A stretch of 64,000 nt of DNA, taken from sequence record PQ758395; one strand, given 5' to 3'. The notes under the pieces are model-generated. The model saw only the letters and a program-made list of their open reading frames with translations. It ran no database searches and was not told where the DNA came from. The DNA comes from Escherichia phage phita32. Numbering within the stretch: position 1 is the stretch's first letter; every line of letters begins with the position of its first letter. The translations under genes and the position numbers were made by a program. Of the stretch, positions 49,316-64,000 are shown in pieces.

Positions 49316-49341
49316 GATTGCAGAGGATTTGGGAGAGAATT

Positions 49342-49536: not shown

Positions 49537-49540
49537 AAGA

Positions 49541-49568: not shown

Positions 49569-49599
49569 ATATGCATAAACTAACAGAGAGTGATGTATT

Positions 49600-49791: not shown

Positions 49792-49798
49792 GTATGAT

Positions 49799-50131: not shown

Positions 50132-50152
50132 AAAAGTCCAGGAGATAAAGTT

Positions 50153-50917: not shown

Positions 50918-50939
50918 TATTTTAAGTTATCAGGTTGCC

Positions 50940-51450
50940 AGAGATCAGGAGGATTTCTAAAATGGATTTCCTCCTTTTGATATTTTACCTACCAGGATAT
51001 TTTAAAATCCTTAGAAAATCAGAAAATGGATCGAAAACTAAAATGGATTTTTCAGAGCAGGCACGACGAGATGAACCACTCATCCTATCGTTTGCACCAT
51101 ATTCCAGACCACCATTACAGATTTCCCGCACATGCTCACATCCTTCTCCTAGAACTTCCCCCACTTACCCTTGACCTTTTATGGTAATGATATAACCACT
51201 ATCTTGAAGTTGCGGTGCAGCTTTCCAAGTACTCGATCTGTTTTTCGTTTCAAAGATTGAATTTTCTGAAAATTTTTCTCGATAAATTTCTCAGTACTCG
51301 ATCTGTTTTTCGTTTTCTGAATCGGATTTTCTGGAAATCGTTCCGGCTCTCGACCTGAAATTTTTGGGGACGAAATCGATTTTTCGTTTTCAGAAATGGA
51401 TTTTTAAAATTTCTATATGGGAATATTTTAGTGGATACTATTTTATAGGA
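50940..51450. repeat. Non-coding repeat region: AAATGGATTT motifs and about 3 degenerate ~60-bp direct repeats (AGTACTCGATCTGTTTTTCGTTT...)
   Basis: AGTACTCGATCTGTTTTTCGTTT occurs at about 51229 and 51292 with a degenerate third copy near 51350; (A)AAATGGATT(T) recurs at least four times between 50955 and 51400; no credible ORF. Confidence 0.6.
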
Positions 51451-51553
51451 AATTGTTACGGAGGGTAATTAGCGTGCTAATTAAATTTATTAAATGCGAG
51501 GAGTTCTAATTTAGAATTTTGAATGATAATCATTCTCGTTTGCAGAATAACGG

Positions 51554-51575
51554 GCAGGCCCGGTGATTGTCTCCC
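51554..51575 (+). repeat. Conserved element copy 1 (GCAGGCCCGGTGATTGTCTCCC)
   Basis: 22-nt core also present inverted at 61118..61139; 13-mer GTGATTGTCTCCC also at 51697. Confidence 0.6.
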
Positions 51576-51696
51576 GGCCCCTGTTGCCCCGGCTTGTTAT
51601 TATAGTATCACGCAGGACAAAGAAAGCAAGGATTTTTTGCATAAATTTTTAGACGATAATGATAACCGTTCTCATTCTATCTAGCGCCCATCCCCA

Positions 51697-51709
51697 GTGA
51701 TTGTCTCCC
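51697..51709 (+). repeat. Conserved element copy 2 (GTGATTGTCTCCC core in a paralogous ~100-nt unit)
   Basis: Units at about 51519-51620 and 51650-51760 share GATAAT(C/G)AT..GTTCTC..GTGATTGTCTCCC..TAT..CAC.AGG. Confidence 0.5.
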
Positions 51710-52058
51710 CCGTCACCAGGGCCTGCCGTCCTTTCGATAGGTATATTGTGCCACCTGGCGGGGCCGCTGTCAACACCTTTCAAAAAAAAAAAATTATAAC
51801 CAGGTGCGCCCACTGCCAGGACCTGGCGGGGCCAACCTGGCAGGTCCGCGCTATAAAGTGAACAGCTACAGAAGAGGTACAAAAATGAAAGGTAATGCTA
51901 CTCACCTGGAAAATAGTAATTGATGATACGGAAGCTATCGCCCTGGTCGAGAAGGCTAAAACTGAAGCACCGGAACATAAAGAAGAGTACGAAAAACGGT
52001 GGTGATCTGGCAGGGCGGCGGCAGGTGGATTCTATCATAAAAATAATTTAAAATAATT

Positions 52059-52087
52059 GTTGACAACCGGGGGAGTCCTGCTATTCT
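52059..52087 (+). promoter_or_regulatory. Sigma70-like promoter (TTGACA-N16/17-TATTCT)
   Basis: AT-rich upstream region, consensus -35; precedes the gene at 52139. Confidence 0.5.
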
Positions 52088-52138
52088 TATCCTACAAGGT
52101 GAACAACACCGCACTAACTAGTAAAGAGGATAAAAATC

Positions 52139-52351
52139 ATGAACGCATACGGAATCAAAGTACGTCGCAACACTCGCCAGGTGGTAACCGATCAAGTGGT
52201 TTGCCTGGTGGATGTAACCATCAACAACGGGCAAGGCCTTTATAAATTTCGTCGCGGTCATAGTTATACCCTGCAACAGCTTAACCGTTGCGCCCTGACA
52301 AAAGGTCAGATCAACCACTGGTTTAATAAAAAAATAAATATTGACATGTAG
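52139..52351 (+). CDS. Early small protein (70 aa)
   Basis: AAAGAGGA RBS plus own promoter. Confidence 0.45.
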   Translation: MNAYGIKVRRNTRQVVTDQVVCLVDVTINNGQGLYKFRRGHSYTLQQLNRCALTKGQINHWFNKKINIDM

Positions 52352-52369
52352 TCTGAAACAAAATATACT
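52341..52369 (+). promoter_or_regulatory. Sigma70 promoter (TTGACA-N17-TATACT)
   Basis: Near-consensus; overlaps the end of the upstream ORF. Confidence 0.6.
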
Positions 52370-52401
52370 AAAAGCACAAAAGACACTAAGAGGATAAAAT
52401 C

Positions 52402-52800
52402 ATGAAAACCACAACCTTTAATTTTGATAATGCTAACTTCTCTTTTTCTGATGTTAAGAACTGCCGCCGTGATCGCGGATTCTACAAGGCCTATAATCTG
52501 GTTGGCCTTGACGATGATAATAATTTGCACGAAGTGGCGGAGATCCGGTACTATGCCGCCGCCAGTGGTAACACTAACTACTGCGTTTTTTGGATACACG
52601 ACAACAAGAACAATAAGTACGGTTATACTGGCGGCAAGGCGAGCGGTCACGGTTATGATAAAGCCAACGCTGCACTTGAAAGCGCATTAAATGCCATGGG
52701 AATCACTGCTAACGGCTGGATCTATGAAGAAGAATTTTTGGCGGCACTTGCTGCCCACCTGGGCTATAAAAAGCACATTGTAACATGCGCCCACGAATAA
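52402..52800 (+). CDS. Early protein (132 aa)
   Basis: AAGAGGA RBS plus own promoter. Confidence 0.45.
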   Translation: MKTTTFNFDNANFSFSDVKNCRRDRGFYKAYNLVGLDDDNNLHEVAEIRYYAAASGNTNYCVFWIHDNKNNKYGYTGGKASGHGYDKANAALESALNAMGITANGWIYEEEFLAALAAHLGYKKHIVTCAHE

Positions 52801-52811
52801 AAAAAAAATAT

Positions 52812-52839
52812 TTGACACGCCACAAAATTTAAGTAGACT
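52812..52839 (+). promoter_or_regulatory. Sigma70-like promoter (TTGACA-N16-TAGACT) with downstream 5' hairpin GGCGGGAAACATCCCGCC
   Basis: A-rich UP region, consensus -35, then conserved leader hairpin and GAGGAAAA RBS. Confidence 0.5.
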
Positions 52840-52883
52840 ATATACAAAGGCGGGAAACATCCCGCCAACACAGAGGAAAAGCT

Positions 52884-53279
52884 ATGAATAAGAACGTACG
52901 CCGCATCATGAACGAACTGGCAAACGATGAAAAAATTATTGACATGCATTTGGTCAACATTTGCCGCCGTTGTGTAACATACAACAACCGCGCCGCAAAA
53001 GCGCGTGAGATGAACGCAAAAGGCACCTTAAAGCCCTTTCAGGTGGTTGTAAAATCTATAACTAATGCAGCAGGCCAGGCGCATGATCACAACAACGAGA
53101 GCACTAATATTGATCCGTCTTACGTAATGAAACGGATCCGGACTTGCAAGAATAAAGAGCAGGTGTATAACGTCATAGATTGGCTTGATTCCATGGGCGA
53201 CGTGGTTTACAATAGATTTTCTGCAGCTATTGAAATTCAGTTAGACAGGTTGGACGGGAAAGTACTAAAAACTTACTGA
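52884..53279 (+). CDS. Early protein (131 aa)
   Basis: Promoter, leader hairpin and RBS all present. Confidence 0.45.
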   Translation: MNKNVRRIMNELANDEKIIDMHLVNICRRCVTYNNRAAKAREMNAKGTLKPFQVVVKSITNAAGQAHDHNNESTNIDPSYVMKRIRTCKNKEQVYNVIDWLDSMGDVVYNRFSAAIEIQLDRLDGKVLKTY

Positions 53280-53280
53280 G

Positions 53281-53326
53281 TTTATTTTTAGATGGCCTTG
53301 ACTCCAGGGCCATCAATAAAGTAAAC
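53281..53326 (+). repeat. 46-nt intergenic palindromic element, copy 1 (TTTATTTTTAGATGGCCTTGACTCCAGGGCCATCAATAAAGTAAAC)
   Basis: 7-bp stem GATGGCC/GGCCATC with TTGACT in the loop; near-identical copies at 53902 and 57619, variant at 54247. Confidence 0.65.
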
Positions 53327-53359
53327 TAATCCCAGTTAAGCGAAAAAGGAGGCTTGAAG

Positions 53360-53479
53360 ATGAGCACTACACGCCAGCACACAAAGGTAACTATTATCGT
53401 TTGCATCATTGGTTATATCCTGGCGCAAATGTTGATGGGTAGCGCCAACGGTGTCGCAAAATTTTTCTTAAACTTTTAA
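53360..53479 (+). CDS. Small hydrophobic peptide (39 aa)
   Basis: AAGGAGG RBS at 7-nt spacing; predicted single transmembrane helix; below the track cut-off. Confidence 0.3.
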   Translation: MSTTRQHTKVTIIVCIIGYILAQMLMGSANGVAKFFLNF

Positions 53480-53506
53480 TTGACAAGCTAACTTAGATCA
53501 GTATAC
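53479..53506 (+). promoter_or_regulatory. Sigma70 promoter (TTGACA-N16-TATACT) with leader hairpin
   Basis: Followed by CGGGAAAACTTCCC hairpin and AAGGAGA RBS. Confidence 0.55.
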
Positions 53507-53558
53507 TAAACACATAAACGGGAAAACTTCCCAGAACACACAAAAGGAGAAAAACACC

Positions 53559-53900
53559 ATGACTACTATGACCGCCGCAGAAAAAGCTATTCAGGTTGCA
53601 GCACTGAAAAAACAGATCGCAGACCTTGAGAACAAGATCGATAACTTTGAAATCGACGAGGACAAGTACGACGAAAACTATGATGAATGGTTAGACGAGA
53701 TCTACGGCGAAATTATGATCGGAAACATTTCTTTTCTTCCGTCGCGTATCCTCAAGGAGCTAGATCCTATCGCTTACCGCTGCGGATTTAGCGACTACAT
53801 CGACAGCCTGGATATTGAGGACGATGAAGAATACCAGGAATTACAGACAGAGTTGGAAGAAGCAAAAGAAGAGCTTGCAGAACTGGAAGAAAACGAGTAA
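53559..53900 (+). CDS. Early acidic coiled-coil protein (113 aa)
   Basis: Own promoter and RBS; strongly acidic (DE-rich) C-terminal half. Confidence 0.45.
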   Translation: MTTMTAAEKAIQVAALKKQIADLENKIDNFEIDEDKYDENYDEWLDEIYGEIMIGNISFLPSRILKELDPIAYRCGFSDYIDSLDIEDDEEYQELQTELEEAKEELAELEENE

Positions 53901-53901
53901 A

Positions 53902-53947
53902 TTTATTTTTAGATGGCCTTGACGCCAGGGCCATCGATAAAGTAAAC
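53902..53947 (+). repeat. 46-nt intergenic palindromic element, copy 2
   Basis: Two substitutions relative to copy 1 (TTGACG loop; CGATAAAG). Confidence 0.65.
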
Positions 53948-53989
53948 TTTATACTGTTAACACTGAACTAATACAGAGGAGTTAAAACC

Positions 53990-54235
53990 ATGGCAGCACT
54001 AATCACCAAATACTATGCACCGACCAACACCAAAAGCGCACGCATCTTGGTAAAAGGATTCGGACGTAAAAAGGTTTACACCTGGGATTATGCCTTAGAC
54101 ATGGAAGACAACTACACCAACGCGATGACAGATTTTATTAATGAACTAAATAAACAGATCTTAACCAATTATAAGGTGACCGACATCGCCTATGTTGGGG
54201 AAGGTGGGATCTGTTTTGTCGGTATTGTCAAATAA
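53990..54235 (+). CDS. Early small protein (81 aa)
   Basis: GAGGAG RBS. Confidence 0.45.
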   Translation: MAALITKYYAPTNTKSARILVKGFGRKKVYTWDYALDMEDNYTNAMTDFINELNKQILTNYKVTDIAYVGEGGICFVGIVK

Positions 54236-54246
54236 GCTGTTTTTCG

Positions 54247-54278
54247 GTGGCCCTGGTGGCAGGGCCATCTATAAAGAT
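54247..54278 (+). repeat. Variant of the palindromic intergenic element (TGGCCCTGGTGGCAGGGCCA + TATAAAG)
   Basis: Same GGCC..GGCC stem type and downstream ATAAAG, but no TTGAC in the loop. Confidence 0.45.
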
Positions 54279-54309
54279 AGTTTATTAACACCATGAAAGG
54301 AGAAAGTAC

Positions 54310-54663
54310 ATGATCAGTGGGGCTAGTTTTATTATTGGCGCTATTGCTACGGCTTTAATTGTAAACAAGATCCAGGATAAAAAGGAAAGAGGAAGTACCG
54401 ACCTTGCAGAATATCCATTTTGGACATTCAATGATAACGAAGATTATATTGTAAAGTATAAAAATAAAGAAGGTGACCAAGTAACACCGCGACCGATCCC
54501 GGCTTACAAGATGCAGGAAACACTATACCGCTTGGAGGCGGGAGGCGCAAAAATTGTGGACTTTTGGGGATACGATCACACAGATCAGGAAGTTATAAAG
54601 CGCCGTATCCGGGCTATTCAGGCCAATATTGAAGTTAGCAAGGGGGGAATATATGAAGATTAA
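54310..54663 (+). CDS. Early membrane-anchored protein (117 aa)
   Basis: AAGGAGA RBS; N-terminal hydrophobic helix. Confidence 0.45.
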   Translation: MISGASFIIGAIATALIVNKIQDKKERGSTDLAEYPFWTFNDNEDYIVKYKNKEGDQVTPRPIPAYKMQETLYRLEAGGAKIVDFWGYDHTDQEVIKRRIRAIQANIEVSKGGIYED

Positions 54664-54850
54664 TTTTGAGAAGATTGTAAAGCGATCTCATGATTCCGAA
54701 GAGCTGCCGGAACGCCGCCAGCGTAACAATAAACTGAATAAGCCAAAAAGATTTGGGAAGATCTGGCGGAATCATTATGATCGTAAATTGCCGGGCCTCC
54801 TTTTGGAACGTGAACGACAGGCGGAACGATACCGCCACAAAGGCAAATAA
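54653..54850 (+). CDS. Early small basic protein (about 65 aa)
   Basis: ATG at 54653 after GGGGGGA RBS; highly basic (R/K-rich); terminator follows. Confidence 0.35.
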   Translation: MKINFEKIVKRSHDSEELPERRQRNNKLNKPKRFGKIWRNHYDRKLPGLLLERERQAERYRHKGK

Positions 54851-54858
54851 CAACCAAC

Positions 54859-54884
54859 GCCCCGCTATTGTGCGGGGCTTTTTA
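54859..54884 (+). terminator. Intrinsic terminator (GCCCCGC-TATTGT-GCGGGGC + T-run)
   Basis: Perfect 7-bp GC stem then TTTTTATTT. Confidence 0.65.
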
Positions 54885-55009
54885 TTTCTATCCCGCCGAT
54901 AGCGCCCCTGGTTGGCCCCACAACGCCCTAAAGGCCCCCTACCTATGCAATCTCCTTTCTTAACCTGAAAACATCGTCAAAGGCCGTTTTAAAGCGTTAA
55001 AAATATTGT

Positions 55010-55037
55010 TGACATCTAAAATATTCTAGATATACTA
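55010..55037 (+). promoter_or_regulatory. Sigma70 promoter (TTGACA-N16-TATACT)
   Basis: Near-consensus boxes. Confidence 0.55.
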
Positions 55038-55071
55038 ATCACATCAAAGCGAGAAGTAAGGAGTAAACGCC

Positions 55072-55341
55072 ATGCGTAAATTGAAAAATTTTGATAAAGT
55101 CGATGTTGTCCTAAATAATTTTTACTACTGCAATAATAAAGCCGTTTGGTGGCGCGATAATTCCACCGATAAGGTTAAGGCGCGCTTTCTCCAAGGGTAC
55201 TGGCAAGGCCGTCCAGTGATTAAAATCCTGGGGCAATTGGTAGCGTTTAAAAATTGCCGCCGTGTTGACGACGTTGAAGAGATTTTAAACATTTTGCGCC
55301 ACAATAATTTAAAAATAGTGTTGACAAGTAAATATCGATAA
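55072..55341 (+). CDS. Early small protein (89 aa)
   Basis: AAGGAG RBS plus own promoter. Confidence 0.45.
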   Translation: MRKLKNFDKVDVVLNNFYYCNNKAVWWRDNSTDKVKARFLQGYWQGRPVIKILGQLVAFKNCRRVDDVEEILNILRHNNLKIVLTSKYR

Positions 55342-55348
55342 GTATACT
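55321..55348 (+). promoter_or_regulatory. Sigma70 promoter (TTGACA-N16-TATACT) with leader hairpin GGCGGGAAAACTTCCCGCC
   Basis: Promoter overlaps the end of the upstream ORF; conserved leader hairpin at about 55359-55377. Confidence 0.6.
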
Positions 55349-55405
55349 TAAACACACAGGCGGGAAAACTTCCCGCCACTAACAAAGAAAATAGGAGAAA
55401 ATATC

Positions 55406-56029
55406 ATGACCACCGTTAACATTACTACAGGTTACAATTTATCTTTCGACGTGCTGACCGACGAACAAAAAGAAAAAGCCGTTGAAATGGTCCGCGAAAG
55501 AGAAGAACACAGCGGGGATAACTTTTTTGCAGAAAGTGTAATTGAATACTATAAAGAGTATGTTTTTCCAGAGTACGGGCTTGAAGATACAGAGGTACAT
55601 TGGTCCGGCTTTTGGTGCCAGGGTGACGGCGCGTCAATCAGTGCTGAAAACGTGGACTTAGAAAAATTCTTGCGTAAAGTCAAGTCTCTGACTAAATTCC
55701 GCTCAATTCGCCACTTGTTCGGCACAATGCATGACGGGGAATTATCAGCCAGTGTTGAACGTGACACATACAGCCGCTATAGTCACGAAAACACTGTAAA
55801 CGGATACATCGATACTACTTGGCTAGACCTAACCGCCAAACAAGAAAACAAAGTGGAAGATTTGGAAGAGCTGATCACCGAGACGGTACGGGAGTTATCC
55901 CGCAAGGTTTACGTAGACTTGGAAGCGGCCTATTTGGAGCAATTCACATCTGAAAACTTGATCGGCCTTATCGAGGCCAATGATTGGCGGTTTGATGTCG
56001 ATGAATATGGTGAGATGACTTTTTCATAA
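55406..56029 (+). CDS. Early protein (207 aa)
   Basis: AGGAGAAAA RBS; acidic protein. Confidence 0.45.
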   Translation: MTTVNITTGYNLSFDVLTDEQKEKAVEMVREREEHSGDNFFAESVIEYYKEYVFPEYGLEDTEVHWSGFWCQGDGASISAENVDLEKFLRKVKSLTKFRSIRHLFGTMHDGELSASVERDTYSRYSHENTVNGYIDTTWLDLTAKQENKVEDLEELITETVRELSRKVYVDLEAAYLEQFTSENLIGLIEANDWRFDVDEYGEMTFS

Positions 56030-56037
56030 ATAAAGTG

Positions 56038-56065
56038 TTGCAATAACCTAAAAACCTGTTATATT
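56038..56065 (+). promoter_or_regulatory. Sigma70-like promoter (TTGCAA-N16-TATATT) with leader hairpin GGGGCAAGACGTTTGCCCC
   Basis: Promoter, leader hairpin and AAGAGGAAAA RBS. Confidence 0.5.
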
Positions 56066-56118
56066 AAAACTCAAGGGGGCAAGACGTTTGCCCCACACAA
56101 AACAAAGAGGAAAACATC

Positions 56119-56499
56119 ATGAAAAACACTACTAAAGCTATTGACACCGTTATGTTTAACCTGGTTACCTTTCGCGAGGATATGAAAGATCTTCCACGTG
56201 AAACAGTGTGCGACCATATCGAAAACTATCGCAAACTAATCAAAGAGTTGCCTTTAAAACGTGACCAGTATGCGGCTAACGCTATGCTTAACGCTATGAT
56301 CAAAAAGATGATCCAGTGTGATTTAACTCTGGCCTATGATTATGCAGGTGGTCGTTTTGCAGTATACAATCGGCCCGTGCCTGGTATGAGCACCACCGAA
56401 GAATTGCACGCGCTCAATCTAAAACAAGACGTGTGGGATAGTATGCCCCGCGTGGTGGTGTGGGCAGAAAGCGGAAAGATTTACGGCGATAATTTTTAA
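56119..56499 (+). CDS. Early protein (126 aa)
   Basis: Own promoter and RBS; terminator follows. Confidence 0.45.
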   Translation: MKNTTKAIDTVMFNLVTFREDMKDLPRETVCDHIENYRKLIKELPLKRDQYAANAMLNAMIKKMIQCDLTLAYDYAGGRFAVYNRPVPGMSTTEELHALNLKQDVWDSMPRVVVWAESGKIYGDNF

Positions 56500-56508
56500 T
56501 CAGGTAAC

Positions 56509-56536
56509 AGGCGGCGGCATATTTGCCGCCTTATTG
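56509..56536 (+). terminator. Intrinsic terminator (GGCGGC-ATATTT-GCCGCC + T-rich)
   Basis: GC stem followed by TTATTGTT. Confidence 0.5.
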
Positions 56537-56566
56537 TTAAACAGAACTGTAAAAGAGGTACATAGA

Positions 56567-56926
56567 ATGGAATTTATTATTCTGACTGTATTAGTTGCCT
56601 TGTTCAACGCCTGGATCGCTGGCAAGGTAGGCAGATCCGCTTTCTTATGGTTTATTATATCTATTTTCCTGGGAGTGGTTGCAACTATCATATTGGTTAT
56701 CCTTGCAATTGTTGACAAAGGTAATAATAGAAAGGGTAAAGTATTTTCCGACCTGTATGACGCACAAACGTTCGTCAACGCCTATTATGGTGATCTCCCG
56801 GTATCCCTACGCTGCAGCCTGGCACAACAGGTTTTTGATGAAGCTAAAACCAGAGATCAAGCCCATGAGATATGTTTAACTGAGGCGGATCGCCTATTTG
56901 AGAGGAATAGAAAATATGTGGGCTAA
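56567..56926 (+). CDS. Early membrane protein (about 119 aa)
   Basis: ATG after AAAGAGG RBS; two predicted transmembrane helices. Confidence 0.4.
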   Translation: MEFIILTVLVALFNAWIAGKVGRSAFLWFIISIFLGVVATIILVILAIVDKGNNRKGKVFSDLYDAQTFVNAYYGDLPVSLRCSLAQQVFDEAKTRDQAHEICLTEADRLFERNRKYVG

Positions 56927-57161
56927 CCGTTTAAATAACTCCGCGCTAATTAATCCCTTTAGTGAAGATTTGAAGCCAGCCGCCTGGCGTGATGGATTCA
57001 ATACCGAAGGATTTATTTTCAGGCCTGATCTTGAGGAATTTTATAACAATGGATCGAACAACGACAGAGATAATTTTTCTTGTGATGTGCGTAGCGATGG
57101 TACTCCTGGGGGCCATTGCAAACCACATCACTACTACCAGGGGGAAAGGGGGAGACGATGA
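56916..57161 (+). CDS. Early small protein (about 81 aa)
   Basis: ATG at 56916 after GAGAGGAA RBS; 11-nt overlap with the upstream gene. Confidence 0.35.
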   Translation: MWANRLNNSALINPFSEDLKPAAWRDGFNTEGFIFRPDLEEFYNNGSNNDRDNFSCDVRSDGTPGGHCKPHHYYQGERGRR

Positions 57162-57277
57162 CAACCAAGGATAAGCCCCGCACCGATAAGGCGCGCCGGG
57201 TTATGGTATGGCTTGAGATCATCGCCCTTGAAATATTGCTAGGCGTAGGGATGTACTTTATCGCTGTAAGTAACTAA
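57158..57277 (+). CDS. Small membrane peptide (39 aa)
   Basis: ATGA start/stop overlap with the upstream gene; GGGGGAGA RBS; hydrophobic C-terminal half; terminator follows. Confidence 0.3.
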   Translation: MTTKDKPRTDKARRVMVWLEIIALEILLGVGMYFIAVSN

Positions 57278-57282
57278 GAACG

Positions 57283-57310
57283 GCCCCCGATCATGGGGGC
57301 TTATCTTTTT
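57283..57310 (+). terminator. Intrinsic terminator (GCCCCCGATCATGGGGGC + T-run)
   Basis: Stem-loop followed by TTATCTTTTT. Confidence 0.6.
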
Positions 57311-57332
57311 AAAAAATTTCCCTTCCAGGGTG

Positions 57333-57360
57333 TTGCAATCCGGTCCGCAATATGGATAAT
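57333..57360 (+). promoter_or_regulatory. Sigma70-like promoter (TTGCAA-N16-GATAAT) with leader hairpin GGGGAGCTAATCCCC
   Basis: Shares CAATATGGATAATA with the promoter at 58149. Confidence 0.5.
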
Positions 57361-57416
57361 AACAATCAACGGGGAGCTAATCCCCACCAACACAAAAACC
57401 AGAAAGGAGAAACAAA

Positions 57417-57617
57417 ATGAGCAACAATATCCGCGTTATTAACTTCAAAAAAGAAGAAAAAATTGCCGTGCTGATTGACGGTCAAGAAATCTTCAAGGGC
57501 TATTATGAAGATCATCAAACGGCGATTAGTATCACTCGCGTGATCGGTTACCATAATTTCTACCCCCAAGGCGCTGAGGCAGCGGTTAAACGAATCAAAG
57601 AGATTGTAGGCCTGTAA
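57417..57617 (+). CDS. Early small protein (66 aa)
   Basis: AAAGGAGAAA RBS. Confidence 0.45.
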   Translation: MSNNIRVINFKKEEKIAVLIDGQEIFKGYYEDHQTAISITRVIGYHNFYPQGAEAAVKRIKEIVGL

Positions 57618-57618
57618 A

Positions 57619-57664
57619 TTTATTTTTAGATGGCCTTGACTCCAGGGCCATCAATAAAGTAAAT
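57619..57664 (+). repeat. 46-nt intergenic palindromic element, copy 3
   Basis: Hairpin and TTGACT loop identical to copy 1. Confidence 0.65.
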
Positions 57665-57707
57665 TTTAATCGTGATAAAATAATCAGTGCAAAAAGGAGT
57701 AATGATC

Positions 57708-58007
57708 ATGTTCATACCCGCCAATAATCTTTATTTCTTTGATGGTCAAATCGTAGACGGTGTGGAGGTGGAGATCACCGGGTGCCCTGGTGGTCAGGTT
57801 ATGACTTTCCGGAATAATGCCTTTGATGATTCTCATATCGTTATGAGAATGGAAGTTAGTAAGCTAGATGATAAGAAAACATTGATTGACTATTCCGTCA
57901 AAGATCATCCAGACTACCACATGATCTATGGTGATTTGTGCATTGTTGACCGTGACAAGGTGGGCGGCATTGTGATCGCTATTGTGAACGATGTTTTCTC
58001 TGTATAG
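57708..58007 (+). CDS. Early protein (about 99 aa)
   Basis: ATG at 57708 after AAGGAG RBS (the track GTG at 57687 contains the RBS). Confidence 0.4.
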   Translation: MFIPANNLYFFDGQIVDGVEVEITGCPGGQVMTFRNNAFDDSHIVMRMEVSKLDDKKTLIDYSVKDHPDYHMIYGDLCIVDRDKVGGIVIAIVNDVFSV

Positions 58008-58065
58008 TTCCGGTAAATGATGCAAAATAAGGCCCCTAGCAGGGCCTGCAGCGATATAATCACAT

Positions 58066-58099
58066 AAAGGCCATGCAACCGCATGGCCTTTATTATTTT
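58066..58099 (+). terminator. Intrinsic terminator (AAAGGCCATGC-AACC-GCATGGCCTTT + T-run)
   Basis: 11-bp stem followed by ATTATTTT; preceded by a second hairpin AGGCCCCTAGCAGGGCCT at about 58030. Confidence 0.6.
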
Positions 58100-58148
58100 G
58101 GCGTTACAGCGGCCCCCAAGGTGCTTAAAAAATTTTTTAAAGAAGTAC

Positions 58149-58176
58149 TTGCATCAAGCCCTACAATATGGATAAT
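58149..58176 (+). promoter_or_regulatory. Sigma70-like promoter (TTGCAT-N16-GATAAT) with leader hairpin GGGGG-GCGG-CCCCC
   Basis: Paralogous to the promoter at 57333. Confidence 0.5.
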
Positions 58177-58232
58177 AGGACGTGTCGGGGGGCGGCCCCC
58201 AATCATTAACCGGATAGATAGGAGTTAAAATC

Positions 58233-58517
58233 ATGGCTATTGTTACCGTTGGCGATGTAGTAGAAATGGAAGCAAAATACTTAAAAGCGGGTATGCATAT
58301 CCTACGGAATGATCAAGAGTTACTATTAACGATGGTCGACTATAATCCCGGCCAGGATTATCCAAGCATCGACTACTTTTTTGAGTATGTTGATGAAGAG
58401 TTGAAAGAGGATGAGGCCTATTGCGGTGAGTTCTGCAACTTCTTTTGTCCTGATGAGGTTGTAAAGGTTATTTATCAACCTGGCGTAGCTTTCCCGCTGC
58501 ACGCTATCAATAAATAA
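58233..58517 (+). CDS. Early protein (94 aa)
   Basis: AGGAG RBS; followed by a GGGGCC-GAAAA-GGCCCC hairpin. Confidence 0.45.
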   Translation: MAIVTVGDVVEMEAKYLKAGMHILRNDQELLLTMVDYNPGQDYPSIDYFFEYVDEELKEDEAYCGEFCNFFCPDEVVKVIYQPGVAFPLHAINK

Positions 58518-58582
58518 ACCTGGCGGGGCCGAAAAGGCCCCTACAGCATAAAATCATAAAAAATAAAGAGAGGCAAATCATC

Positions 58583-58816
58583 ATGATGGAACAAATTAAA
58601 CGCGCCGAGGCTATTAATGGCAATGTGATCTATTTTGTTAGCAATAACGAAAAAGGCGTACCATATGCAGCGGTAATAGTGCAGCCTGACGGCGATTATT
58701 GGTTTACTGTATACGGATCTTATTCTTTCGGGCGTCCGGTGCATGATAGAATTTTAAAAGTAGCTAATCCAACCGGGAAGAATATCACAGCAGAAAAATT
58801 TTTTGAAAATAGTTGA
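58583..58816 (+). CDS. Early small protein (77 aa)
   Basis: AAAGAGAGG RBS. Confidence 0.45.
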   Translation: MMEQIKRAEAINGNVIYFVSNNEKGVPYAAVIVQPDGDYWFTVYGSYSFGRPVHDRILKVANPTGKNITAEKFFENS

Positions 58817-58843
58817 CATGACCGTATAAGACTGTAGTATATA
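58813..58843 (+). promoter_or_regulatory. Sigma70-like promoter (TTGACA ... TATATA) with leader hairpin GGGGGCAAGCCCC
   Basis: -35 overlaps the upstream stop codon; followed by leader hairpin and AAAGAGGA RBS. Confidence 0.5.
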
Positions 58844-58889
58844 AATCAAAGGGGGCAAGCCCCACCAACCACAAAGAGGATAAAAAATC

Positions 58890-59069
58890 ATGGCTATTAT
58901 TGCAAAGACCGAGATTTTAGGTTTAGATTCTATTCTCCTGGCATACGAGGAAGCTATAGAAATGTATGTGGTTTCCTATGGTGAGTATATCCGTGAATAT
59001 GAATCTATTGATCTAGCTTTTGAATGTTATATTCACCAGGTAAATAAGGCATATGATGATTATCGTTAA
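58890..59069 (+). CDS. Early small protein (59 aa)
   Basis: Just below the track cut-off; has promoter, leader hairpin and RBS. Confidence 0.4.
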   Translation: MAIIAKTEILGLDSILLAYEEAIEMYVVSYGEYIREYESIDLAFECYIHQVNKAYDDYR

Positions 59070-59075
59070 AATAGT

Positions 59076-59103
59076 TTGACAACAGTCAACAATCTGGTAA
59101 AGT
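59076..59103 (+). promoter_or_regulatory. Sigma70-like promoter (TTGACA-N16-TAAAGT) with leader hairpin GCGGGAATACTTCCCGC
   Basis: Promoter followed by leader hairpin. Confidence 0.45.
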
Positions 59104-59151
59104 GTACTACATAGCGCGGGAATACTTCCCGCCATTAATGAGGGTAATTTA

Positions 59152-59298
59152 ATGAAAACTTTCAACGCAACGGCCTCGACAATTGGTTATATTATTACAG
59201 TACAAGCCGTGGATCTGGTAGCAGCAGCAAACAAGATTAAAAAGATGATTCCGCCAGGCAGTGAATTTTCCGTTTGGGAAGTAAAAAATAAATCTTGA
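59152..59298 (+). CDS. Early small protein (48 aa)
   Basis: GAGGG RBS; below the track cut-off. Confidence 0.35.
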   Translation: MKTFNATASTIGYIITVQAVDLVAAANKIKKMIPPGSEFSVWEVKNKS

Positions 59299-59322
59299 CG
59301 ATAATTTGTTATCTGATAGAAT
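59295..59322 (+). promoter_or_regulatory. Sigma70-like promoter (TTGACG-N16-TAGAAT)
   Basis: Overlaps the upstream stop; followed by a GC-rich leader hairpin and GAGGAAAA RBS. Confidence 0.5.
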
Positions 59323-59382
59323 GTATTTCGTAGGGCGGGGAAATAAGGCAACGCCCCACATCAACCGGAAGAGGAAAACAAG

Positions 59383-59619
59383 ATGAGTATTGCGACAATA
59401 TTAACCGCTGTTAAAACCGCTGAACGTTCCGGCCTGCAAGTTGAGATTATAGATCAACCAGGTGGCGATCTCCTTGTCCAAGTTTACCCGCCGAAAGTAG
59501 GGGATGATTATTATTGGTGTTATTCTGATACGTTCGAACAAGTAGACACGAAAGCAATAACCGCCTTTATTTTAAAAGCCGTTGAAGAAAATAACTTGCA
59601 CAATAACGTCAATCAATAA
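59383..59619 (+). CDS. Early small protein (78 aa)
   Basis: GAGGAAAA RBS. Confidence 0.45.
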   Translation: MSIATILTAVKTAERSGLQVEIIDQPGGDLLVQVYPPKVGDDYYWCYSDTFEQVDTKAITAFILKAVEENNLHNNVNQ

Positions 59620-59673
59620 ACCATAAGCGAAGTGGTAACGCCCCATTAAACGCAATAGAAAGAGGATAACTAC

Positions 59674-59778
59674 ATGAAACAGAAATTAATTGATGCGGTG
59701 ATCCTGGTTATTGCCCTAGGTATTGGCCTGATTGCAACCATGGCTAATATGATCTTGTCTTCCAACGGTATCGGATAA
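59674..59778 (+). CDS. Small hydrophobic peptide (34 aa)
   Basis: AAAGAGGATAA RBS; predicted single transmembrane helix; leader paralogous to that of the gene at 60095. Confidence 0.35.
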   Translation: MKQKLIDAVILVIALGIGLIATMANMILSSNGIG

Positions 59779-59787
59779 GGTGGGCAA

Positions 59788-60003
59788 ATGATCACCAACA
59801 AAACAGGCAAAACAGAATTTTTACGCAACTTGCAGATCGGCAAGCCTGAGATCTGGTATTGCACTAAAACACCACGTGACGAAATGAAAGACTTCACCGC
59901 CACGCTGCAACGGGTGAAGATATCTATCACACAGAAAAAGGCCTTACTAGTGGTGGAAGGTGAGATCCCCCAAACCGTTGTTATAGTTGAGCGTACAGCA
60001 TAG
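59788..60003 (+). CDS. Early small protein (71 aa)
   Basis: AAGGTGGG RBS. Confidence 0.4.
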   Translation: MITNKTGKTEFLRNLQIGKPEIWYCTKTPRDEMKDFTATLQRVKISITQKKALLVVEGEIPQTVVIVERTA

Positions 60004-60094
60004 TTTAATTTATACAGATACCTGAAAATTAACCAACAAAGCATAAACAGGCGGTTACCGCCGCCTTAAACGTAGCAGAAAGAGGATAGACACA

Positions 60095-60379
60095 ATGAAA
60101 AAGATGATCGCAGTGGTTTCCCTGGTTGTTGGACTTAATGCGCCTGTAATGGCTAAAGAGCTGGCAAAAGAGGTTGATCTAACGGATATCCATGCCGTCA
60201 ATCAAATCGGGGTTACTTATCGCTTATGCCTTGCCGCTAAAACTTTTAATGACGGCACAACAGAGTACTACGGATTCGAGGGTATCCGGTGCGGTGAGCT
60301 TGCTCGCGACCTTAAGGAAGATCCAGACCTGGAAGATCTGCCCATCACCGTAAACGGTAAAGCTTACGTAGACCGTTAA
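60095..60379 (+). CDS. Small secreted/periplasmic protein (94 aa, signal peptide)
   Basis: N-terminal MKKMIAVVSLVVGLNAPVMA signal-peptide-like sequence; AAAGAGGATAG RBS. Confidence 0.45.
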   Translation: MKKMIAVVSLVVGLNAPVMAKELAKEVDLTDIHAVNQIGVTYRLCLAAKTFNDGTTEYYGFEGIRCGELARDLKEDPDLEDLPITVNGKAYVDR

Positions 60380-60381
60380 CC

Positions 60382-60522
60382 ATGAGAAAGATAATCATCA
60401 CCTTGGGGATTGTGGTAGCAATATTGGCGCTCTTTCCCCTTATGGTTAGATATGTGCTGATACGTGCTGTTCTAGTGGTCAGCGATCTGGTGTTATATAT
60501 ATATATTAACTTACTGTTTTAG
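60382..60522 (+). CDS. Small hydrophobic peptide (46 aa)
   Basis: ATG 2 nt after the upstream stop; very hydrophobic; no clear RBS. Confidence 0.2.
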   Translation: MRKIIITLGIVVAILALFPLMVRYVLIRAVLVVSDLVLYIYINLLF

Positions 60523-60718
60523 GTGCGATAATGACCACTGATGAAGCTGTAAAAGTGTTGGCGGTATTGAGATAACATAATCAGACAAAAGTTATAAACG
60601 ATCCTGATTATGTTGACTCAAAGCGTGAAGATGAGACATTGACCGCAATAGGGATTATTCAAGAATTGCTAAAGCGCATGACAGAGAAAAACCGACCTGA
60701 CTACATAGGGGGTAAAAT

Positions 60719-61030
60719 ATGATCGCTATTACGCCAACCGTTTTAGATTGGTATCGGCAACGCATAGCGCTTCCGCTGGCTATCTTCAAAGATGCGGAAG
60801 CAAAACAACGCCGGATCTCAATACATGAGATCATCAACCTTAACGCTGGAGGCACACCATACCGTCCAGGACCTGGCCGTGAGATGGACAATACGTTAGC
60901 GATCCTGAAGATACGCCGTAAACGGTCCTCCCTTACGCTGGACTCATTACACACAATGCAGTCTCCGTTCCAGGTGACCGGGAAACGGATCGCCAGGTCC
61001 TGGACAAAGGCCAATGATCGGACCGTATAA
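60719..61030 (+). CDS. Hypothetical basic protein (103 aa)
   Basis: GGGGG RBS; preferred over the overlapping antisense 179-aa ORF because it is co-oriented with the array. Confidence 0.3.
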   Translation: MIAITPTVLDWYRQRIALPLAIFKDAEAKQRRISIHEIINLNAGGTPYRPGPGREMDNTLAILKIRRKRSSLTLDSLHTMQSPFQVTGKRIARSWTKANDRTV

Positions 61031-61060
61031 ATAAAAAGTGTTTTGGTACTGATTTTGGGG

Positions 61061-61089
61061 TTGACTTGTTCGGCCCCTTTTGCTATTCT
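61061..61089 (+). promoter_or_regulatory. Sigma70-like promoter (TTGACT-N17-TATTCT), -35 within a GGGG...CCCC hairpin
   Basis: Reads through the inverted copy of the 22-nt element. Confidence 0.4.
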
Positions 61090-61117
61090 TATTAAACGGG
61101 CGGCACTTGGGAACAGG

Positions 61118-61139
61118 GGGAGACAATCACCGGGCCTGC
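61118..61139 (-). repeat. Conserved element copy 3, inverted (GGGAGACAATCACCGGGCCTGC on the + strand)
   Basis: Exact reverse complement of 51554..51575. Confidence 0.6.
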
Positions 61140-61165
61140 CTGTCATATAAGAACTATAAAAACCT

Positions 61166-61194
61166 TTGACATCTGCCATGGGGTGAGGTAACAT
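61166..61194 (+). promoter_or_regulatory. Sigma70 promoter (TTGACA-N17-TAACAT)
   Basis: Followed by a leader hairpin and GGAGAGAGGAAAA RBS. Confidence 0.5.
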
Positions 61195-61249
61195 TTATCT
61201 TGAAGGGGGCAAAAGTGCCCACACAACAACCAGGAGAGAGGAAAACACT

Positions 61250-61522
61250 ATGTCAAGCTGGATTAATCAAGAAGTCGAATCACGTTTTAATGCTATTTGG
61301 GATCTCATCGAAAAAGAGGACGGAACATCAAGCCCCTACCTCAACAATTTGGAATTCCATTTTGTGGAAGCGATGAACGCAGAACATGATCACGAAGGTG
61401 GCGCGGATGAGTTCGCTAAAGGTTATGGCTTTAACAATGCCAACGAAATGATCGAGGCGGTAGTACTCCAGGCTGAGGAAGATTATCAATTAAAAACTCT
61501 TGAATTCTGCCGCCGCAAGTAA
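61250..61522 (+). CDS. Early acidic protein (90 aa)
   Basis: Promoter and RBS present. Confidence 0.45.
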   Translation: MSSWINQEVESRFNAIWDLIEKEDGTSSPYLNNLEFHFVEAMNAEHDHEGGADEFAKGYGFNNANEMIEAVVLQAEEDYQLKTLEFCRRK

Positions 61523-61582
61523 TAAGATAATGACACGGGCCGAAAGGCCCACTAATCAAGATCACATAGAGAGGAAAACATC

Positions 61583-61846
61583 ATGAAACGCATCGATCAG
61601 CTTAAAGTAGTTCAACATATGGCTTACCGTATCCTTGAAGTTCAAAAAGGCAGCAAAAAAGAAGTTTGTGAAAAAGCCTATAAAATTTTCACCCGCAAAA
61701 AGGACGACTGGATGTTACGCCAGACTAAAAAGGACGATATCTTGGGATACTTGGAAGAAGAGATCCGCCTTGCCGAGCAAGAAGAGATCCGCCGTGATGA
61801 AGCAGAATATCAGGCAAGTTGGGAATACTGGATGAATAACAAGTAA
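61583..61846 (+). CDS. Early protein (87 aa)
   Basis: GAGAGGAAAA RBS; followed by a GGGC-GAAA-GCCC hairpin. Confidence 0.45.
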   Translation: MKRIDQLKVVQHMAYRILEVQKGSKKEVCEKAYKIFTRKKDDWMLRQTKKDDILGYLEEEIRLAEQEEIRRDEAEYQASWEYWMNNK

Positions 61847-61907
61847 TACAGCAAGCCATGCAACCAGGGCGAAAGCCCCTTGATTCTGAAAAATAATGCT
61901 ATCCTTA

Positions 61908-61936
61908 TTGACAAGGATCGGCAGTTTTGCTATATT
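61908..61936 (+). promoter_or_regulatory. Sigma70 promoter (TTGACA-N17-TATATT)
   Basis: Consensus -35, good -10. Confidence 0.55.
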
Positions 61937-61983
61937 CTTTTTCAGAAGGAAGTTGTAAGAAAATTATCTAAGAGGTAAACACC

Positions 61984-62403
61984 ATGAATATTAAATCTAA
62001 CAATCCCGCATACAGCTTTGATAACGCTTTTTGTCACGGCCCAGCCGCAAAAGGTTTTGAAATTGATGGTAAACTGGTTATTGTGAATGTTGACGGGGAA
62101 GAGGTTGCAGTATATCCGGTGGCAGACGTTAAAAGCCGTTTACAATGCCGCATTGATGTTACCGCATATCAGCTTGATCCGGTCCGCGTAGTTGCCCTGG
62201 TCCTGGAGGAAGAAATCAAAGCGATGCACCATAGTAACAGGTTTATTGGTGACGCGCAGGATAATATGAAGGTGTGCCGTTATAAAGTTAATGAAGTGCT
62301 TAAAGAATATGGATTTAAGGATCTGATGATCAAACGTGATGAAAAATTTCGTTATCGTAACGACCTGGCAAATCGAATCTATGAAATATACGAATCATTA
62401 TAA
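61984..62403 (+). CDS. Early protein (139 aa)
   Basis: AAGAGG RBS; terminator follows. Confidence 0.45.
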   Translation: MNIKSNNPAYSFDNAFCHGPAAKGFEIDGKLVIVNVDGEEVAVYPVADVKSRLQCRIDVTAYQLDPVRVVALVLEEEIKAMHHSNRFIGDAQDNMKVCRYKVNEVLKEYGFKDLMIKRDEKFRYRNDLANRIYEIYESL

Positions 62404-62421
62404 TTTTTTAACTGAATTATC

Positions 62422-62448
62422 AAGGGGCTTAAAGCCCCTTTCTTTTTG
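62422..62448 (+). terminator. Intrinsic terminator (AAGGGGCTT-AAA-GCCCCTT + T-run)
   Basis: Ends the + strand early-gene array. Confidence 0.65.
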
Positions 62449-62449
62449 T

Positions 62450-64000
62450 CTCCTCTTTTCCTACCACAAACGGCCAAGCCTGGCAAGTGGAATAATTGAC
62501 TAGCCAGCAATTACCAACACTGTACAAACATACATGTAAAATAGCTATTGCATAATATTTCATTGTGTGGTAGCAGGGCCATTTTTACCCGCTTTTCCTT
62601 CCAAAACTGCATGTAATTCCACTATTGCACAAAATTTAACCTGATGCACAATATCTCTTTCTTGTCAACAACTAAAAATCTTTATAAGTCATACACTTAC
62701 ATAACCACAAAAGCGTGTTCTACGTGAAAAATCGGGTATAACTATAGCCACTAAATTCCAGAATTCACGTAGCGTCACCATTCTATAGCCCGCTAAGTAT
62801 TTATTCCGACCATAGAATAACGGAATAGTCAATACCTGCATAAAATAATTATTCGTGTAAACTGCATAACATAAATCAGCTAGGGTGTCAACATTTTTCG
62901 TAAACAGCTTGAAATTATCACGGTGAGTTATCATAAGCAGATAAATCTTTAGTCGTCTAATGTTTACTGTACGTTACTATACTAACTGAAATCATTAGAT
63001 GACTAAGAGAAAGATAAGAAATCATTAACAATGCAATTGTTTTATTCGTAACAATAAGGCAACTATGCAAACGAATGGCATGGCGCGACGGAGTCGCGAC
63101 ATAATATAAAAGCAGTAACCATCACCCCCGTGATAGTTTGTCTGCAAACTATTAATCAGATCATAGTTGCCTTGTATTTAGTTAATCATGACATAAACTC
63201 AGGCATAGCCTTCGTCTCGAGGATGTTAACAAGCAAGGCAACTATAGATCTGCTAATAGTTGCCCTGCTTTTATATTATGTCATAGAAACACCCGAAGGG
63301 GTGACCAAAGGTCACCTGGCATAGCCAGTGAAAGATTATTAACTTGCTAATTGTCAACTTGTTGGCTGTTAGCTTGTCAATTGTAAACTAGTTAATTGTT
63401 ATCATGCAAACGAATGGCATGGCTTATCATCTATGCGTGAACTATCCAGGCGTAAACAGTCTATGTGGGAACAATCTATACGTGAACAGTGAAACATGAA
63501 ATAATAACAGTCGTTATTGTGGCGTATTGTGCTGCAGTATGTCATATTGTGTCAGACAAGTTTTTCTCCTCTTTGTCAAGTGCTGCATGAAAAATTTACA
63601 ATCTTGTATGGTAGCATTTTGCGGCCCTGTTTACATTCAGGAATGTATGTATAATCCTTGTTGTGTGGGCGTTTAGACGTCTGGACGGTCAGAAGTCTGC
63701 AGGTTAATATCTAATCTATTGGCTGCTAACTATATCCCCCACAAATAATAAGAAATATAATTGTTATATGTGTAAACCGTAACTCATGTTATCAATCCCT
63801 GTATGTATCGCCAGTGGTGCGCATAATGGGTATTATGTTAAATTGCCCGTAATGATAACTATTCTCACAATGATAGGTATTCTCATTCACCCCACAAGAT
63901 AGGTTGCAAATGTTGTGCCACTGTGTGAACGGCCTCACCTATTAATTTGCCTCACTGCCTCGATATTTGAGAATTATTATAAGAATGAAAAGTATTCCCA
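62450..64000. repeat. AT-rich non-coding region with dispersed repeats and palindromes
   Basis: GCAAACGAATGGCATGGC twice (about 63066 and 63407); GGCAACTAT / ATAGTTGCC inverted pairs (63058-63270); TTGTCAA-containing direct repeats (63351-63400); palindromes CGCGAC-GGA-GTCGCG (about 63085) and GGTGACC-AAA-GGTCACC (about 63300); no convincing ORF with an RBS. Confidence 0.5.

Follow-up and report, generated by a model that had tools for sequence, protein, structure and literature searches.

A candidate chromosome-end and packaging region with a short direct terminal repeat in the Vequintavirus phita32

Results

The end of the window contains the homologue of a direct terminal repeat

We have investigated the last 1.55 kb of a 64,000-nucleotide stretch of DNA from Escherichia phage phita32 (sequence record PQ758395), which in its full length is referred to as the window. 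A preliminary description of the segment at 62450-64000 had noted an AT-rich non-coding region containing repeats and palindromes and, as possible roles, had named that of genome termini or of a packaging site, that of a second origin and that of a dense region for regulation or injection control. Our analysis indicates that this is very likely the chromosome-end (concatemer-junction) and packaging region of a phage whose ends are fixed and carry a short direct terminal repeat (DTR), as found in T7-type genomes. Its right part, at 63555-64000, is predicted with high confidence to be the terminus, as it constitutes by homology the initial 446 nt of a DTR of about 457-459 bp. The proposal of genome termini has thus found support in the comparison with related phages, which carry the homologous DTR of 458/459 bp.

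This assignment relies on the close relationship of the window to a well-sampled group of phages. The stretch 62400-64000 matches 119 phage records, all belonging to the genus Vequintavirus, at identities of about 89-94%, with relatives including rV5 and Murica being about 90-94% identical, and as judged from its sequence the window is Vequintavirus DNA, that is, DNA of an rV5-like E. coli myovirus. The DTR itself has matches in 119 records, with identities of 91-97% among the matches listed. In three GenBank records, whose ends were both retrieved, the start of the sequence is exactly repeated at its end, over 459 bp in Gotham (vB_EcoM_Gotham, MT682716, where it is annotated as repeat_region 1-459 and 136567-137025), 459 bp in EdH4 and 458 bp in YN3, and the reverse complements of these repeats align to 63555-64000 with 95-96% identity. 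The records of Gotham, EdH4, YN3 and bov10K2 all begin with GGCGGACG(G/A)AATGGGAATAC, and the three that contain two copies of the repeat terminate in ...GAGGAGAAAAACTTGTC. One of the same two bases also marks the start or the end of at least six further records (bov10K2, bov22_2, HdK5, ECP2309, Aya and Pr121LW), and in rV5 the repeat encompasses 459 bp at 6191-6649 of the retrieved rV5 locus (L002). A DTR at this locus is already known for the genus, as is the designation of the surrounding gap as non-coding: a terminal redundancy of 458 bp was described for EdH4 and HdK5 (Korf 2019, PMC6563267), and the terminal repeat of the genus was also reported in a second study, with read evidence for fixed ends in the case of Gotham (Dias 2020, PMC7471380).

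The boundaries of the repeat are well defined. On the left, the sequence TGTCA|GACAAG places the cut between 63554 and 63555, with the repeat starting exactly at G63555 of GACAAGTTTTTCTCC. This position is enclosed by the palindrome TGTCAGACA (63550-63558), as evident from record ends and from conservation. In Gotham, EdH4 and YN3 the record terminates in ...CTTGTC, the reverse complement of the GACAAG at 63555, and those of Aya and Pr121LW start there. Within an alignment of 15 genomes, which contains the window and 14 relatives including two IMG/VR contigs, the sequence GTCAGACAAG across this boundary (GTCA|GACAAG) is invariant. The conservation changes sharply at 63551, from 58% identity with many indels immediately to the left to 99% at this position and 91-99% without indels up to the end of the window. 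At position 63989 (A instead of G), phita32 differs from all 14 relatives. The homologue of the right boundary, ...TTYCGTCCGCC (CGTCCGCC|), would be located about 11 nt beyond the end of the window, at approximately 64011. That the window stops just short of this point looks coincidental, although the position chosen for opening the source record could also account for it.

The repeat is part of a gap without genes that separates two convergent arrays

The region constitutes the initial 1.55 kb of a gap of about 2.6 kb, which in rV5 separates ORF164, the last member of a rightward array of small genes, from ORF163, the last member of a leftward array, with both arrays converging on the gap. 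In the description of the rV5 genome, the gap was drawn as a grey box labelled "non-coding, contained no ORFs", bidirectional terminators were expected within it and not found by the authors, and a change of the GC/AT skew at 104425-105475, which falls into the gap, was described to coincide with the switch of transcription direction (PMC3606486). In agreement with the terminator noticed at 62422 in the preliminary description, the rightward early array of the window is closed by a Rho-independent terminator on the + strand (62422-62440). It consists of an 8-bp stem with five G-C pairs followed by a T-run and is located directly 3' of a 139-aa ORF (61984-62403) that represents the homologue of ORF164. 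The annotations of Murica, Gotham, EdH4 and Alma contain an equivalent terminator.

To describe composition and repeat content, we have ranked the region among 250 sliding windows of 1551 nt covering the 64 kb. Its G+C content of 0.373, compared to a mean of 0.438, is the second lowest, with the sole lower value belonging to a position that overlaps the region, which confirms its AT-rich character. The alleged abundance of repeats and palindromes has proven true for inverted 10-mers, for which the region ranks third of 250 and attains the top position once overlaps are discounted, as both higher-ranking positions overlap it. In contrast, perfect 8-nt palindromes are not unusual (rank 43/250) and the content of direct repeats is high without being extreme (rank 18/250), with more of them found in the part between 50 and 53.5 kb. 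The left portion of the region forms an AT-rich non-coding spacer of about 600 bp (62441-63040) with a G+C content of 0.34-0.38 and a GC skew of -0.2 to -0.3, reflecting an excess of C over G on the + strand. The length of this spacer is nearly constant in the 15 genomes (619-622 nt), with identities of 77-98% and almost no indels.

Several observations concern the protein-coding potential of the region. Each ORF of at least 38 residues that is testable over its full length is intact in only one or two of the 15 aligned genomes, and an ORF on the - strand at 62429-62563, which is testable only from 62441 and overlaps the ORF164 terminator hairpin, is stop-free in 6/15. The variable sites lack a three-base periodicity, both at 62441-63050 (61/66/55) and within the DTR (29/35/30). 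In a scan of eight ORFs against PHROGs, we obtained a single weak match (E = 0.009) for an 81-aa ORF on the - strand (62689-62934), which was disregarded because this ORF is broken in 14 of the 15 genomes. Scans of the region and of the whole rV5 gap against Rfam 15 with permissive E-values yielded best scores of 17-21 bits, at chance level and far from the gathering thresholds of 45-67, and a tRNA scan of 48000-64000 found none. Among the relatives, ORF annotations in the gap differ from record to record. By these comparative measures the stretch is non-coding, in line with the statement that it holds no convincing gene up to the end of the window.

A long conserved palindrome precedes the repeat

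On one side of the junction and 273 bp from the left boundary of the DTR, we find an inverted repeat able to form a hairpin. This imperfect palindrome of about 185 nt (63098-63282) folds with z-scores relative to shuffled sequences of -8.5 and -8.1 for RNA of the + and - strand and -10.7 for DNA. It is composed of outer arms of 18 nt forming a perfect inverted repeat (63098-63115 and 63265-63282), a side hairpin at 63117-63138 that resembles a terminator on the - strand (63138-63117), inner arms of about 40 nt (approximately 63144-63194 and 63228-63262) and a 33-nt insertion at the apex (TAAACTCAGGCATAGCCTTCGTCTCGAGGATGT, 63195-63227), which is found at this place only in the window and in rV5. 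Each of the 15 genomes is predicted to form this hairpin, with the entire length variation confined to the apex, and in one of the IMG/VR contigs a single-base insertion in the palindrome abolishes a bulge. With 98-100% identity among the 15 genomes, the block surrounding the insertion (63046-63194 and 63228-63284) is better conserved than the DTR and the neighbouring genes, and searches for distant homologues of this block and of the DTR by BLAST found nothing beyond the genus. As a separate observation, a sequence similar to the 33-nt insert is located elsewhere in SYGMH1 (L018), within the first of the repeat arrays described below, which suggests that this hairpin-like insert is a small mobile or recombining module.

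The palindrome and its vicinity are populated by short repeated sequences. The inverted GGCAACTAT / ATAGTTGCC pairs that had been noticed earlier resolve into four sites of the 11-mer AAGGCAACTAT, which are located within 210 nt in alternating orientation at 63056 (+), 63163 (-), 63235 (+) and 63256 (-, with one mismatch). The second and third are carried by the inner arms of the palindrome, and the third and fourth form an operator-like 11-10-11 inverted pair. No other perfect copy of AAGGCAACTAT exists in the 64 kb, and the eight matches with up to one mismatch, compared to 1.4 expected, were not reached in any of 100 shuffles. Similarly, the duplicated 18-mer GCAAACGAATGGCATGGC, found at 63067 and 63406, is part of a longer 20-mer, ATGCAAACGAATGGCATGGC. 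The first copy of the latter on the + strand (63065-63084) abuts the first AAGGCAACTAT site (63056-63066) and is invariant in 15 genomes, whereas the second (63404-63423, +), at the head of a repeat array, is 95% conserved. Both copies are present in most relatives, their number is reached in 0/100 shuffles, and a scan of IMG/VR with the 20-mer retrieved only two contigs, both ordinary Vequintavirus genomes. Directly before the palindrome, a G+C hairpin (GCGAC-GGA-GTCGC, 63085-63097) is invariant in the alignment. Two small G+C hairpins on the other side (CACCCGAAGGGGTG and GGTGACCAAAGGTCACC, 63290-63323), the first of which is terminator-like on the - strand (63303-63290), constitute an optional module, which Gotham, EdH4, YN3, Alma and both IMG/VR contigs lack.

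Variable tandem arrays extend to the left cut site

The space between the palindrome and the left cut site is occupied by tandem repeats. The TTGTCAA-type direct repeats of the preliminary description are contained in an array on the + strand (63335-63401) composed of units of about 15 nt of the TTGTCAA/TTGTAAA type (period 30, 2.2 copies, 70% matches). The array is present in the window; its expanded form, however, is common only to SYGMH1 among the 14 relatives, and its alignment contains 34-84% gaps. A second array on the same strand (63429-63554) has a period of about 15 nt, with four units (63429-63488) that contain a GT(A/G)AAC core and match at 68%, followed beyond 63488 by short repeats of the TATTGTG/ATGTCA type that continue up to the left cut site in an indel-rich stretch. 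The four units are located 400 bp from the AT-rich spacer, and their copy number among relatives ranges from one in bov10K2 to about 11 in rV5. The 18-mers, the GGCAACTAT pairs and the TTGTCAA repeats, which had been listed in the preliminary description, all adjoin the DTR and are not part of it.

Elements inside the repeat

Within the right part of the DTR, a repeat search identified two tandem 18-nt units on the + strand (AATGATAnnTATTCTCA, 63851-63885) and a third, degenerate one (63984-64000, +), which ends 11 nt before the right terminus. The consensus of the three units is AATGAnAnnTATTCyCA, and 2/3 of the TATTCTCA octamers of the 64 kb are located at 63851-63885. The motif ATTCTCATT / TATTCTCA appears at 63860-63885 and at 63993-64000, and ATTCTCATT is found twice each in the DTR of the Klebsiella phage KPP-1 (L020, positions 3214 and 3255) and in the ORF-less terminus region of the Vibrio phage ICP1 (L021, positions 880 and 936). 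Although the statistics are weak, ATTCTCATT / TATTCTCA may constitute a common terminase recognition motif.

The repeat also contains promoter-like hexamers on the + strand, namely TTGTCA-N18-TACAAT at 63573-63602, with 10/12 hexamer matches, and the consensus TATAAT, which is indeed present at 63650-63655. Latter sequence lacks a properly spaced -35 element, the sole -35-like hexamer, TTTACA (63630-63635), being 14 nt away. In both cases the last T of the -10 hexamer varies, being replaced in TACAAT in 9/14 relatives and in TATAAT by G or C in 7/14, and a promoter scan counted 11 promoter-like sites compared to 8.6 ± 2.4 expected by chance. The hexamers inside the DTR are thus probably not functional promoters. 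Since these sites are not conserved, the proposal of a regulatory region is left without support.

Other observations in the window and its relatives

In rV5, the remainder of the gap on the right side of the DTR, which is outside of the window (L002 6650-7609), is G-rich and devoid of a conserved ORF annotation. It contains four copies of CTCTTCAGG (6719, 6802, 6837 and 7251) and a GGGGAGGGGG / CCCCCTCCCC pair 418 nt apart, and KPP-1 has the sequence CCTCTTCAGGAA near its DTR. Among the records that match the region, 18 carry the organism name "Campylobacter phage" (such as MG065644 and MG065666), 16 of them with C. jejuni as host, at about 93-99% identity, and the assignment of a Campylobacter host looks doubtful in these cases. 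Within the early genes of the window, a 47-nt cassette is found three times between small genes (53281-53327, 53902-53948 and 54236-54282). It comprises a G+C hairpin (GATGGCC..GGCCATC) that contains TTGAC and is followed downstream by TAAAGT, and looks like a combined terminator-promoter module. Finally, 51219-51404 contains three successive units of about 47-57 nt with a spacing of 65-74 nt and 74-79% identity, in the part with the highest direct-repeat content of the window.

Discussion

We have described a gene-free region of phita32, whose homology to a known DTR, conserved boundaries and adjacent palindrome suggest a role in the processing of concatemers, for which we infer the following steps, including the proteins assigned to individual repeats. 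In replicating concatemers, neighbouring genomes would hold one copy of the DTR in common, extending from 63555 to approximately 64011. The terminase would recognize this junction and cut on the left at 63554/63555 and on the right after ...CGTCCGCC|, and the repeat would then be copied to provide each virion with a DTR at both ends. The upstream elements, comprising the arrays at the left cut, the duplicated 20-mer, the palindrome and the four AAGGCAACTAT sites, would act as cis-acting DNA sites in terminase recognition, in the duplication of the repeat or in both, latter for example via a hairpin intermediate as proposed for T7. By analogy to cosB of phage lambda, the arrays and the 20-mer on the left and the TATTCyCA units on the right would be putative terminase-binding motifs. 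The roles proposed for these flanking elements are assigned with moderate to low confidence.

Several points weigh against this interpretation. The rV5 genome was described as circularly permuted (PMC3606486), and for the Vequintavirus BpE1AUH a PhageTerm analysis has assigned headful packaging with partial permutation (2026, PMC13211470). The ends of phita32 itself are predicted from homology alone, both the right boundary and the second repeat copy fall outside of the window, and protein binding at the described sites is putative. The span of one to about 11 units in the second array and the lack of a counterpart in KPP-1 argue against a strict requirement for the arrays, and the core GTRAACAR is not enriched in the window (16 matches compared to 11.5 expected), so that the second array is defined by its tandem arrangement and not by the number of motifs.

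The descriptions of permuted genomes raise the question of whether the common record ends could merely mark a pac site or an assembly convention in a circularly permuted genome packaged by a headful mechanism, as would also be compatible with the opening of most GenBank records of the genus at other positions. We consider this very improbable. The rV5 sequence was obtained from 3.6-fold Sanger coverage of clone libraries, which is blind to a short DTR (PMC3606486), groups in Portugal, Germany, China and Hungary have deposited records with an identical start base, of which three contain an exact repeat of 458-459 bp at both ends, and the terminal repeat is explicit in two papers (PMC7471380, PMC6563267). 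Such identical ends and exact repeats from separate groups would be difficult to explain by a purely permuted genome with headful packaging. Even less credence is warranted for small unannotated or decayed protein genes in the stretch. The 81-aa ORF with its weak PHROG match, a negative GC skew at 62350-62950 as would be found for a gene on the minus strand and the ORFs called here by some annotators would speak for them, but the ORFs tested over their full length are broken in nearly all genomes, substitutions lack codon periodicity and the annotated ORFs are inconsistent between records. A regulatory region or non-coding RNA locus, in which small RNAs or early transcripts would start from promoters in the area of the DTR and the palindrome would act as RNA structure or as operator cluster for a transcription factor, appears improbable. 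It would account for the promoter-like hexamers at 63573-63602 and 63650, the terminator-like hairpins of the - strand at 63303-63290 and 63138-63117, the operator-like pair of AAGGCAACTAT sites and the strong RNA fold of the region. However, the number of promoter-like sites is at chance level, the decisive T of either -10 hexamer varies among the relatives, no Rfam family matches and, because both flanking gene arrays point into the gap, there is no downstream gene to control.

A replication origin is a more serious contender, although we still regard it as unlikely. In this case, the arrays, the palindrome and the AT-rich spacer would form, for example, a late rolling-circle origin beside the terminus, which is compatible with the presence of the DTR and is an alternative solely with regard to the function of the flanking elements. 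Such an arrangement has a precedent in ICP1, whose late origin is located beside the terminus in ORF-less space (bioRxiv 10.1101/639039), and would be consistent with tandem 15-nt repeats adjoining a 600-bp AT-rich spacer and a long palindrome and with the skew change of rV5 inside the gap. Conversely, the authors of the rV5 study relate the skew changes to the direction of transcription, we found no DnaA box (TTWTNCACA) in 62441-64000, the adjoining genes encode small hypothetical proteins with no initiator identified among them (a distant initiator gene was not searched for), the arrays are unstable in number and absent in KPP-1, and a comparison with the ICP1 terminus region yields no significant similarity. 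Beyond the predicted packaging region with fixed ends, we tentatively put forward a wider proposal, which is possible though in our view rather doubtful. The palindrome of 165-197 nt and the four AAGGCAACTAT sites might constitute an essential hairpin or cruciform element in cis, which would prime the duplication of the repeat or serve as late, packaging-coupled origin, with ATTCTCATT as terminase site, and which could be common to many myoviruses with T7-like replisomes, including the Vequintavirinae and possibly ICP1-like phages.

In the literature that we have searched, there is no description of the conserved palindrome with its four 11-mer sites, of the duplicated 20-mer or of the labile arrays at the left cut, nor of the conservation of cut sites and palindrome position across genera or of an origin in Vequintavirinae. 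Knowledge of the true ends determines where Vequintavirus genomes start and how long they are. Most of the 119 matching records were opened arbitrarily, and for the type phage rV5 a circularly permuted genome is still on record. Vequintavirus phages are used in the typing of O157 strains and as components of therapy cocktails. Whether ends are fixed and packaging is site-specific is relevant both to the risk of generalized transduction and to the engineering of genomes. Targets to study how a large myovirus recognizes the junction and duplicates its repeat are provided by the invariant palindrome, the set of four 11-mers, both copies of the 20-mer and the cut sites with their conservation between genera.

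Comparison with known systems

The closest comparison is with rV5, whose 'non-coding' box between genes 163 and 164 is the same locus (Kropinski et al. 2013, PMC3606486), with the stretch being about 93% identical to rV5 104984-106621. Both phages share the 33-nt insertion at the apex of the palindrome, but rV5 contains about 11 repeat units instead of four, and the original study assigned no function to the gap in a genome that it considered permuted. The DTRs of Gotham and of EdH4/HdK5 share with the window the 95-96% identity, an identical left boundary and the same gap between ORF164 and ORF163. In contrast to these, the window shows a single copy that is 11 nt short and whose ends are predicted by homology only, whereas the published accounts of EdH4, HdK5 and Gotham provide the length of the repeat without the flanking palindrome and repeats.

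A more distant comparison is offered by ICP1, which is among the phages with the closest polymerase homologues of rV5 (PMC3606486). Its terminus is located in a 1.3-kb ORF-less space with an adjoining late rolling-circle origin, and PhageTerm has placed the termini at 431 (+) and 891 (-), which the authors have interpreted as a headful pac site (bioRxiv 10.1101/639039). Both systems have a gene-free terminus gap with repeats, two copies of ATTCTCATT and related replication proteins, and the two PhageTerm positions of ICP1 are 460 bp apart, almost exactly the length of the Vequintavirus DTR. It might thus be that ICP1 carries a short DTR too. The similarity of its terminus to the Vequintavirus repeat is, however, not significant in alignments, and we have for this reason rejected a homology between the two.

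In phage lambda, cosB contains copies of a short motif in both orientations beside the terminase cut, which are bound by the small terminase subunit. Lambda differs from the system described here by its 12-nt cohesive ends, by not duplicating a repeat and by the absence of a sequence relationship. In T7, arrays of short repeats flank the terminal repeat of 160 bp. Common to T7 and the predicted phita32 ends are a short exact DTR, fixed ends and the need to duplicate the repeat during packaging, and the hairpin-ended intermediate near the T7 repeat may be compared to the long palindrome located 273 bp from the repeat in the window. The differences are the lack of sequence similarity, the larger genome of a myovirus of about 137 kb and the threefold longer repeat. 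Moreover, there is no evidence of a promoter for a phage RNA polymerase at the junction described here, and the hairpin intermediate is documented only in T7. According to one account, the terminal repeats of T7 must be duplicated in the processing of concatemers (PMC4281155, citing Molineux 2006 and Chung & Hinkle 1990), and the finding of hairpin-ended DNA is there taken to support a model of primed synthesis (PMC4281155).

The most informative comparison is with KPP-1, a member of the genus Mydovirus within the Vequintavirinae, whose 514-bp DTR (116316-116829) was identified from doubled coverage and a T7-type assignment by PhageTerm (PMC9862379). As in the window and its relatives, this DTR is located in a gene-free gap flanked by convergent arrays. 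At the left boundary, both groups share the pattern ACAA..TTCTC.CTCC.TTGTCAAG, which in window orientation reads AACACAATTCTCTCTCCTTGTCAAG...AAATTTACAA in KPP-1 and GACAAGTTTTTCTCCTCTTTGTCAAG...AAATTTACAA in Gotham, and at the right boundary the pattern GTCCGYC|TRGCA, with GTCCGTC|TAGCAC in KPP-1 compared to GTCCGCC|TGGCAG. The alignment of the DTR core is significant (score 37 compared to a null of 20.3 ± 2.2) and the KPP-1 repeat also contains ATTCTCATT twice. At 309 bp from the same boundary, compared to 273 bp in the window, KPP-1 has a long inverted repeat, whose perfect arms of 21 nt are 164 nt apart (z = -8.8), and a comparable G+C hairpin precedes the palindrome arm. The outer arms are collinear, with GACACAATAACACGGGAG in KPP-1 and GACATAATATAAAAGCAG in the window, each perfectly paired with its own partner arm, which gives their differences the appearance of compensatory change. 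Because the alignment of the palindrome block is not significant (score 21 compared to a null of 18 ± 2.2), this homology of the arms is only suggestive. The two phages differ in that the repeat of KPP-1 is 55 bp longer, its palindrome has TGATAA-N4-TTATCA sites in place of AAGGCAACTAT, a tandem array is absent and the overall similarity of the DNA is marginal. From the shared layout and the absence of the array in KPP-1, it follows that the conserved parts of the system are the repeat, the two cut sites and a long palindrome in their vicinity, whereas the arrays are evolutionarily labile. By analogy, the presence in two genera of a long invariant palindrome, separated from the repeat by about 270-310 bp, would fit the primed-synthesis model of T7.

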